IMG/VR virus record: IMGVR_UViG_2529293044_000014
Coordinates: 1 to 15,111 of that record
Origin: a virus
Lineage: Duplodnaviria; Heunggongvirae; Uroviricota; Caudoviricetes
Length of the DNA stretch: 15,111 bases
Reading direction: 5' to 3' (one strand)
Shown here: piece by piece, positions 3,001-5,562 of the stretch
Layout of the letters: each line of letters opens with the position of its first letter
Numbering within the stretch: position 1 is the first letter of the stretch
Position numbers: made by a program

Positions 3001-5562
3001 ACGCCAGCAAACTGGAGGAGTTTTCGAAAGAGTGGCAGGACGCTAACGATAAGTGGAATGCCATGTGGGGCGTCAAAATTGAGCAGACCAAAGACGGCAA
3101 ACATTATGTCGCGGGTATTGGCCTCAGCATGGAGGACACGGAAGAAGGCAAGCTGAGCCAGTTTCTGGTTGCCGCTAACCGTATCGCGTTTATTGACCCG
3201 GCAAACGGGAATGAAACGCCGATGTTTGTGGCGCAGGGCAATCAGATATTTATGAACGACGTGTTCCTGAAGCGCCTGACGGCCCCGACCATTACCAGTG
3301 GTGGAAATCCACCGGCATTTTCCCTGACATCAGACGGAAAGCTGACCGCTAAAAATGCGGATATCAGTGGCAGAGTGAATGCGAACGCCGGGACGCTCAA
3401 CAATGTCACGGTAAATGAAAACTGTACGATTAAGGGCATGCTGGAGGCGACTCAGGTCAGAGGTGACTTCGTTAAAGCTGTATCCAAATCATTTCCGAAA
3501 CAGGCTGGTACGTGGGGTAACACGGAAACACCAAACGGGACGGTTACAGTCACCATCAGCGATGATCATAACTTTGACCGTCAAATCATTATTCCGCCCA
3601 TTATCTTTAACGGAATAGCGTATAGCTATCCGGGAAGTGGTAATAACCCGGGAGGTACAAGATACACGGGGTATGGTTTTGAAGTTCGCAAAAACGGTGT
3701 ATTAATCGCATCCAGAGAAACTAAAGGGGCCATTCCCGGTAGCTACAGTGCGGTTATTGATATGCCGAGTGGCAGGGGAAGCGTCACCCTGGAGTTTAAG
3801 GTTTTCCATAAAGGCAATCAGTGGGCAGGTAATATCACCGACTGTACGGTGATTGTGACCAAAAAGCCGCTTCCGGCATCAGTATTCGTTGAAATTGTTA
3901 TAACCCATATAAGGGCACCAAAAATGGTGCCTTTTTTATTGCAGAAAAGCGAGAGGTAATTATGCGTAAAGTTTGTGCAGCCATTTTGTCCGCAGCCATC
4001 TGTCTGTCCGTATCCGGTGCGCCTGCATGGGCGTCTGAACATCAGTCCACACTGAGCGCGGGGTATCTTCATGCCCGGACGAACGCTCCCGGTAGCGATA
4101 ATCTTAACGGGATTAACGTGAAATACCGTTATGAATTTACGGACACGCTGGGGCTGGTGACGTCATTCAGCTATGCAGGAGACAAGAATCGCCAGCTTAC
4201 CCGTTACAGCGATACCCGCTGGCATGAAGATTCCGTGCGTAACCGCTGGTTCAGCGTGATGGCGGGGCCGTCTGTACGCGTGAATGAATGGTTCAGCGCG
4301 TATGCGATGGCGGGTGTGGCTTACAGCCGTGTGTCGACTTTCTCCGGGGATTATCTCCGCGTAACTGACAACAAGGGGAAAACGCACGATGTGCTGACCG
4401 GAAGTGATGACGGTCGCCACAGCAACACGTCTCTGGCGTGGGGGGCTGGCGTGCAGTTTAACCCGACCGAATCCGTGGCCATTGATATTGCTTATGAAGG
4501 CTCCGGCAGTGGTGACTGGCGCACTGACGGTTTCATCGTGGGTGTCGGTTATAAATTCTGATTAGCCAGGTAACACAGTGTTATGACAGCCCGCCGGTTC
4601 AGGCGGGCTTTTTTGTGGGGTGAATATGGCAGTAAAGATTTCAGGTGTACTGAAAGACGGCACAGGAAAACCGGTACAGAACTGCACAATCCAGCTGAAA
4701 GCAAAACGTAACAGTACCACTGTGGTGGTGAACACGCTGGCCTCAGAAAATCCGGATGAAGCCGGGCGTTACAGTATGGACGTTGAGTACGGTCAGTACA
4801 GCGTTATTCTGTTGGTGGAAGGATTTCCTCCTTCGCATGCCGGGACCATCACAGTGTATGAAGATTCTCAACCCGGTACGCTGAATGATTTTCTCGGTGC
4901 CATGACGGAGGATGATGCCCGTCCGGAGGCACTGCGACGTTTTGAACTGATGGTGGAAGAGGTGGCGCGTAACGCTGAGGAGGCGAAGAAGAATGCCGGA
5001 GAGGCGGAGACGTCAGCAAGGAATGCCGGCATATCAGCCAGTCAGGCAGAAAAGAGCGCTGCACATGCTGACACTTCAGCAGGATATGCATCGGAGTCAG
5101 CCCGGCAGGCGACGGAAAGTGCAGCCTCAGCAAAGCAGTCAGAGGAGGCGTCCTCGTCCTCGGCCTCTGAGGCCGCTCAAAAAGCCAGTGAGTCATCACA
5201 AAGTGCAGCAGAAGCTGAATTGTCAAGAAAGACGGCAGAAAGTGCAGCCGGTAATGCATCCAGGGATGCAACGACCGCAGCAGAAAAAGCCCGGGAGTCA
5301 GCAGAAAGCGCACAGTCAGCGGAACAAAGCAGGATAGCGGCGGAAGACGCCGTAAACCGAATCCCCACCGTGGTGGGACCTCCCGGGCCAAAGGGGGAAC
5401 CGGGGCCCGCGGGTCCTCAGGGGCCGAAGGGTGATAAGGGAGAGCGCGGTGACACCGGCCCTGTCGGGGCAACCGGCGAACGGGGACCGGCAGGTGATGC
5501 TGGTCCGGCAGGCCCGCAGGGGCCGAAAGGCGACAGGGGAGAGCGGGGAGAGACCGGTCTGA

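Follow-up and report, generated by a model that had tools for sequence, protein, structure and literature searches.

Does the unusually long J reading frame of this lambdoid prophage, which runs through a terminator-like hairpin and over the ribosome-binding site of the neighboring gene lom, encode an evolved extension of the tail-tip protein, or is it the product of a disruption at the 3' end of an otherwise ordinary gene? The window analysed here is the whole stretch of 15,111 nt, and corresponds to contig AIFD01000003.1 of the Escherichia coli DEC2E draft genome (GCA_000249235.2). It forms the right arm of a lambdoid prophage that carries effector genes and is integrated beside torT.

Gene content and family membership of J

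The contig opens with the 3' end of tail gene I, which lies upstream of J, the tail-tip or host-specificity gene (480-3959, plus strand, 1159 codons as written). J is followed by an intact lom (3962-4561, plus strand), whose 199-residue product is an Ail/Lom outer-membrane beta-barrel (Pfam Ail_Lom), by a split side-tail-fibre gene, an nleG-like ORF and nleB2 (7266-8246). Further downstream are an IS4-family element (8368-9695), which interrupts nleC about 80 nt into the gene, nleD (11106-11804), the chromosomal torT (12279-13307) and an IS66-family transposase that reaches the contig end. EPEC E2348/69 carries a homologous prophage, with 99.95% identity over 9696-13516. A lom protein identical to that of the window recurs in 69 indexed blocks, from which 24 contigs were read, and no near-identical J was found at the ten loci sharing this identical lom protein.

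The J ORF has been deposited as "hypothetical protein ECDEC2E_0280" (EHU63346.1), yet it is a lambda_TipJ member by descent, disrupted at its last eight codons. It scores 2275 bits against the NCBIfam model NF049904 (lambda_TipJ; cut-off 1950), with residues 1-1129 matching profile positions 1-1155 of 1163. Precomputed Pfam matches on the exact protein comprise FNIII-A_GpJ, Phage-tail_3, Ig_J, Ig_J_second, Phage_Tail_Tip and Ig_GpJ_C (PF24801, PF13550, PF24421, PF24489, PF09327 and PF12421), and the lambda_TipJ order of hub, FNIII, Ig_J, Phage_Tail_Tip and Ig_GpJ_C is found in the window J. The gene context is likewise that of the family, with tail assembly gene I upstream and lom and the side tail fibre downstream, as seen on comparison with lambda, Perceval and PhiR49_1. 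Lambda gpJ itself (PDB identifiers 8IYK, 8XCG and 8XCJ) belongs to the same family and shares its architecture and its I-J-lom-stf gene order with the window. The one departure from the family lies at the extreme C-terminus, where the characteristic tail KK-x3-G-I-S-[IV]-x before the stop is replaced by KKPLPASVF and further residues in the protein as written, and is regained when one A is restored.

Origin of the C-terminal extension

The original prediction had pointed out that the J ORF passes through a hairpin with a T6 run and over the lom ribosome-binding site to within 2 nt of the lom ATG, and this is indeed what the sequence reads: the frame spans the hairpin, the T6 run and the lom Shine-Dalgarno (GAGAGG, 3951-3956, plus strand), and is closed by the TAA at 3957-3959, leaving 2 nt to the lom ATG at 3962. 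A comparison of the J-lom junction with those of related phages suggests a simple origin for this arrangement. Perceval (the LF82 prophage, OV696612) and PhiR49_1 (PV340568), both plaque-forming, are the best phage matches, with 97.6-97.7% identity over 3000-4700, and agree with the window in their spacer, their hairpin and the start of lom. They differ in having the junction ACC-AAAAAA-GCC where the window has ACC-AAAAA-GCC (the A5 run at 3861-3865, plus strand), and in possessing an annotated J of 1137 residues that ends in AASGISIR and is separated from lom by an untranslated spacer of 69 nt. From the end of J to lom, this gap in the A-run is the sole difference in length from either phage, and indel lists against seven relatives agree on it.

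The six-A run encodes Lys1128 and Lys1129, eight codons ahead of the normal stop, and the frame of the window shifts after Lys1129. The stop codon at which J ends in Perceval and PhiR49_1 is still present in the window as a TGA (3890-3892, plus strand), albeit out of frame. Translation of the sequence as written thus leaves the J frame after Lys1129, bypasses this TGA and reads 30 unrelated codons up to a chance TAA. The resulting out-of-frame tail (residues 1130-1159; 3867-3956, plus strand) supplants the ancestral AASGISIR and is no more than an out-of-frame reading of the final 24 nt of J that continues across the hairpin and its T-run and over the ribosome-binding site of lom. Upon restoring one A, a J of 1137 residues that stops at the TGA and the 69-nt J-lom spacer are both recovered. 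The repaired end is also parallel to that of lambda J, which ends in VMVIKKQALGISVV (compare its KKQALGISVV), so that the KK...GIS motif is common to lambda gpJ and the window J once the latter is repaired. The excess of 27 residues of the window ORF over lambda J (1159 versus 1132 residues) is hence a consequence of the frameshift. Taken together, the extension is very probably the product of one A missing from a six-A run and not an evolved part of J, and the ancestral, functional product is the 1137-residue form. The suspicion that the C-terminus as written is not the true one is thereby borne out, and the gene is better annotated as J, frameshifted, with a true form of 1137 residues, than as a 1159-residue hypothetical protein. 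It also serves as a caution that a long, clean ORF crossing a terminator and the ribosome-binding site of its neighbor may reduce, once aligned, to a homopolymer difference of one base.

Distribution of the A5 allele

Using a probe of 65 nt with the A-run at its centre, we found matches in about 2005 of 5426 complete E. coli genomes, at 2647 places. Only two of these approximately 2005 genomes match the A5 form exactly, viz., 377323_2f (NZ_CP039404) and MFDS1016424 (NZ_CP106924), and among the matches listed the others show a gap of one base. The A5 allele of these two genomes is identical to that of the window over the 65-nt test stretch, and it resides in prophage backgrounds unlike that of the window. 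PGAP describes gpJ as "frameshifted" in both, and the explanation of the extension is in this sense ordinary, since the same A5 allele has already been labelled a pseudogene elsewhere. In 377323_2f, the adjoining lom and tail-fibre genes are frameshifted as well, which suggests assembly errors in that genome.

Other collections give a similar picture. In IMG/VR, scanned with a gapped exact pattern, at least 119 loci were found, all of them A6 among the matches listed, and a scan of GTDB species representatives returned a single locus, also A6. Over all loci fetched, which include the listed IMG/VR matches, A6 is seen in 132 of 134 and A5 in the remaining two. The exact 1159-residue protein is recorded on one contig only, AIFD01000003.1, and the full-length members listed for its 90%-identity cluster (4993 members in total) have 1137 residues. 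The relatives therefore do not share the extension, a point that the original prediction had singled out as decisive.

In a protein search initiated with the last 252 residues, the alignment of most of the homologues listed breaks off where the frame shifts, covering at most 88% of the query (less for fragments), and two of the matches listed cover it fully. Both of the latter are sporadic read-through alleles: one (P0017) has the same shift at the A-run in another background, while the other (P0086) has a shift farther upstream in another receptor-binding module, and their extension peptides differ. The sporadic recurrence of such alleles implies either that real slippage occurs at the site or that the same error recurs. 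Further, the shifted frame is not kept open in relatives: of 24 distinct AASGISIR contexts, 10 have it closed ahead of the normal stop.

Alternative explanations for the extended reading frame

The original prediction had proposed that the long frame reflects a lost stop codon or a recombination junction at the 3' end, i.e., that J gained a new C-terminus through a substitution in its stop or through an exchange that joined it to foreign sequence. J is certainly a mosaic: megablast homology to lambda ends at about 3447 and returns at about 4434, being lost over roughly 3448-4433 (from J codon ~990 to two-thirds into lom), and the nearest relatives of the 5' 2.9 kb differ from those of the 3' part of the gene. 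However, the stop codon was not lost, as the TGA at 3890-3892 is intact and merely out of frame. A junction at the 3' end does not hold up either, since the window is collinear with Perceval through the J-lom spacer, at 96-100% identity per 100-nt bin from 3400 to 4700, and, more broadly, with the Perceval type over about 3400-4700, where identity per 100 nt is 92-100%. No 3' breakpoint is seen, and the deletion of 1 nt in the A-run is the only change in length. The mosaic junctions are situated upstream by more than 400 nt (about 440 nt, near 3447) and are common to relatives that possess a normal 1137-residue J. An origin by loss of the stop or by exchange is thus extremely improbable.

A different possibility is that the extended frame is a functional variant, in which the A-run acts as a switch of the J tip, or in which the C-terminus couples J to lom translation and melts the terminator. 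Homopolymers can serve as contingency loci, the read-through alleles in at least two other backgrounds (P0017 and P0086) end at the same TAA, and ribosomes could re-initiate across the 2 nt that separate the stop from the ATG. Yet A5 occurs at a frequency of about 0.1% of genomes, with both complete-genome cases called pseudogenes, and a run of six A offers little length for slippage to be efficient. The extension peptide varies between backgrounds and tracks compensatory changes in the hairpin, and is therefore not under protein-level selection; the early closure of the shifted frame in many relatives weighs in the same direction. The hairpin starts about 45 nt past the A-run, too distant to stimulate frameshifting, and ribosomes that slipped by -1 on the A6 form would end up in the other frame. 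We consider a functional variant of this kind very unlikely. An equally slim chance attaches to its more specific form, wherein A5 would be real in DEC2E, the A-run would be a low-frequency slippage switch, and the shifted J, bearing a foreign tail of 30 residues on its receptor-facing tip and ending 2 nt from the lom ATG once ribosomes had melted the terminator, would link inactivation of the tip to raised lom read-through and translation. We found no evidence supporting selection for altered lom read-through. Programmed ribosomal frameshifting and transcriptional slippage were considered separately and rejected, as the site displays neither a stimulator at 5-9 nt nor a conserved product in the alternative frame. 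The preferred explanation for the extension hence remains the loss of a single A from the six-A run.

A conserved hairpin ahead of lom

The hairpin traversed by the shifted frame (3911-3937, plus strand) was detected by a pattern scan as a 10-bp stem (3911-3920 paired with 3925-3934) enclosing a loop at 3921-3924, with a T6 run at 3932-3937. It has the form of a rho-independent terminator, namely a G+C-rich stem-loop followed directly by a U-run, and a computed folding energy of -14.7 kcal/mol (z = -2.05). Equivalent hairpins follow J genes with several distinct C-termini, and their stems come in three common versions (GGGCACC/GGTGCC, GGGCGTC/GACGCC and GGGCGCC/GGCGCC), across which the stem pairs 8/19 and 9/18 covary, switching between GC and AU and between CG and UA. 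In the alignment, 91% of the hairpin cells are paired, compared with 35-63% in controls with a slid partner, and the covariation score was reached by one of 500 shuffles; as the sample consists of 15 distinct but related sequences, the support is moderate. Lambda has a different hairpin with a T-run at the same position between J and lom. The covariation and the lambda counterpart favor a terminator or insulator over coding sequence, and these comparisons support the element as a conserved candidate terminator or insulator before lom that is not coding. More generally, the covariation supports a real terminator or insulator ahead of the lysogen-expressed lom across this phage group.

Assembly error or genuine mutation

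Whether the A is missing from the prophage itself or only from its draft sequence is a separate question. A miscalled homopolymer in the draft appears to us the somewhat likelier origin. A second private homopolymer indel is present 1.7 kb away, where the window has GGGG (5591-5594) versus GGG in relatives; this indel splits a tail-fibre gene of 437 codons, and the four-G form was found at none of the 4406 places matched in complete genomes. In addition, a sibling DEC draft (L018) shows three private indels of 1 nt in 10.6 kb when compared with two finished genomes. DEC genomes were reportedly sequenced by pyrosequencing, which we have not counted as evidence.

A genuine replication-slippage mutation in a decaying prophage is nevertheless a quite credible, if less probable, origin. 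No base-calling error could account for the IS4-family element within nleC, and the prophage is therefore truly decaying. The homologous prophage in the finished genome of E2348/69 has frameshifted J and tape-measure genes, and A7/A8 differences are seen between finished genomes. Frameshifted tail genes in prophages are well known, as are the mosaic receptor-binding modules of J in lambdoid and Stx prophages. As regards the second indel, a change from three to four G affects a short homopolymer and is in itself a less typical consensus error, which speaks against an artefact at that position.

If the A5 allele is real, the tip of the central fibre would gain 30 hydrophobic or basic residues at its receptor-facing end in place of the conserved tail, and adsorption or trimer packing would most likely be impaired. 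Ribosomes translating J during late transcription would then encounter the stem of the terminator and finish translation at the ribosome-binding site of lom, and a slight change in lom read-through or translation might follow.

The conserved C-terminal tail of J

An alignment of 25 J C-termini, which are 52-98% identical, shows K337, K338, G342, I343 and I345 to be invariant and S344 to be nearly so. The frameshift deletes all of this KK...GISI motif after the KK. No assigned role for the conserved tail was found in the literature searched, and the extreme C-terminus of J goes unmentioned in the accessible portion of the lambda-LamB structure paper (PMC11101478). In the alignment-based AlphaFold monomer model of a normal homologue (P0016), the Ig-like receptor-binding domain has pLDDT values of 70-90 and the last strand ends in VIVTKK, with the final seven residues unmodelled and a pLDDT below 50 for the last eight residues. 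A model of the window's own C-terminal 252 residues, made without an alignment, has a pLDDT of 40.7. Going by the homologue model, a real A5 allele is predicted to retain the Ig-like receptor-binding fold and to lose the conserved GISI tail, whose role could be in trimer packing or could be receptor-related. The substitution L1127P, which we take to be a host-range mutation in the last eight residues of lambda J, was given no evidential weight.

The receptor-binding module

A near-identity of J to lambda J in its first part and a divergence at its end had been proposed at the outset, and both are upheld here. When the repaired protein is aligned globally with lambda J, residues 1-960 are 97.3% identical and residues 961-1137 are 42.9% identical. 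BLASTP gives 90% identity overall, with the differences concentrated at the end. The last 150 residues or so are thus not conserved with lambda J, and we delineate a receptor-binding region of a non-lambda type at codons ~961-1129 (3360-3866, plus strand) from these identity comparisons. Over residues 985-1137 the identity to lambda J falls to 37%, and the region does not show close similarity to the LamB-specific domain (~985-1132), which harbors the receptor loops. The receptor-binding domain of lambda J is described in the structure paper as Ig-like, with four receptor loops (PMC11101478). The diverged module of the window nevertheless belongs to the Pfam domain of its lambda counterpart (Ig_GpJ_C).

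The diverged domain is a common and known variant of J. Using codons 958-1127 (nt 3351-3860) as a tblastn query, the module was found to be 99.4% identical to that of PhiR49_1, 98.8% to those of Stx2c- and Stx1a-converting phages, 97% to those of ev099 and PhiR26_1 and 93% to that of mEp332, compared with about 46% to that of lambda and 46-47% to that of phage 21. Perceval, PhiR49_1 and the Stx2c/Stx1a-converting phages share the same receptor-binding module, at 98-99% identity up to Lys1129, and Perceval has been documented to form plaques (10.1101/2022.10.28.514194). The wider set of plaque-forming phages that carry the module, which includes PhiR49_1, PhiR26_1 and mEp332, matches it at 93-99% identity. 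About 2000 of the 5426 complete E. coli genomes contain this module.

Since the last ~177 residues are only 43% identical to those of lambda J and the DNA lacks megablast homology to lambda from ~3448 onward to ~4433, the receptor may differ from that of lambda, and judging from sequence divergence a receptor other than LamB is plausible for this module. Natural non-lambda J tips of the Ig_GpJ_C fold can use OmpC (10.1101/2022.09.30.509847). The best sequence match of the C-terminal 252 residues among solved structures is the A8 gpJ chimera (E = 1.2e-74; PDB identifiers 9WCA and 9WCB), an OmpC-binding tip that has been employed in engineered lambda particles. Its receptor-binding domain is clearly diverged from that of the window and is therefore a different module, from which no receptor can be transferred by homology. 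The literature searched states no receptor for Perceval, the PhiR phages (PhiR49_1 and PhiR26_1), the ev phages or mEp332. We consider the receptor of this common module to be more worth pursuing than the extension. Among the phages that carry it, the listed host of PhiR49_1 is ECOR13, and that of PhiR26_1 and mEp332 is K-12 MG1655.

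Mosaicism and the C-terminal motif of J

Among E. coli prophages, too, J is mosaic, as seen when the region 4-3283 of the window is compared with prophage loci. Positions 4-2897 share ~96% identity with loci resembling that of the plaque-forming phage Perceval but only 93% with the prophage of the E2348/69 type, in which 2898-3283 are without any match, while over 3284-8300 the identity to that prophage is 98.7%. Such a patchwork of matches to Perceval-like and E2348/69-type loci implies that an exchange took place within J. Upon restoring the missing A, the extreme C-terminus of J (window 3861-3889) carries the motif KK-x3-G-I-S-[IV]-x, which is invariant in our alignment of J C-termini across receptor-binding modules that are otherwise just 52-60% identical. 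The motif is likewise present in lambda J, and the available portion of the lambda-LamB structure paper (PMC11101478) assigns no role to it.

The J-lom spacer

The loop of the terminator-like hairpin (3921-3924) reads AAAA in the window as against AGAA in nearly all relatives, and the A of the window is common to one IMG/VR locus only (L071). In two NCTC E. coli genomes, an IS4-family element lies between the J stop codon and lom (loci L009 and L015, 3492-5000 in each) and cuts off the left arm of this conserved hairpin. Thus, rearrangements repeatedly hit the J-lom spacer.

Single-base indels in the side-tail-fibre gene and sibling drafts

Like J, the side-tail-fibre gene (4620-5940) is frameshifted, here by a private homopolymer change at 5591-5594 (GGGG in the window vs GGG in all relatives), which leaves the gene, normally 437 aa long, split into an ORF of 375 aa (4620-5747) and a remnant (5662-5940). 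In complete E. coli genomes the site has 4406 matches, and G4 does not occur in any of them. With finished genomes as the reference, private single-base indels are also seen in the same prophage of sibling DEC-collection drafts (at 216, 249 and 2463 in L018 and 3850 in L014), which hints that this batch of assemblies has a raised indel error rate.

Effector region and contig end

An IS4-family insertion sequence (8368-9695; transposase 8380-9588, minus strand) interrupts nleC ~80 nt into the gene, and the NleC effector gene is thus broken in DEC2E. Compared with E2348/69, the insertion has an apparent target duplication of 10 bp. The nleG-like ORF (6326-6904) is flanked by a direct repeat of ~180 nt (6094-6280 and 6983-7156; ~85% identical), perhaps a scar left by recombination in the exchange of effector cassettes. 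Directly after torT (12279-13307) comes an IS66-family (ISCro1-like) transposase (13547-15073, minus strand), within which the contig end falls, whereas E2348/69 has torR at this place.
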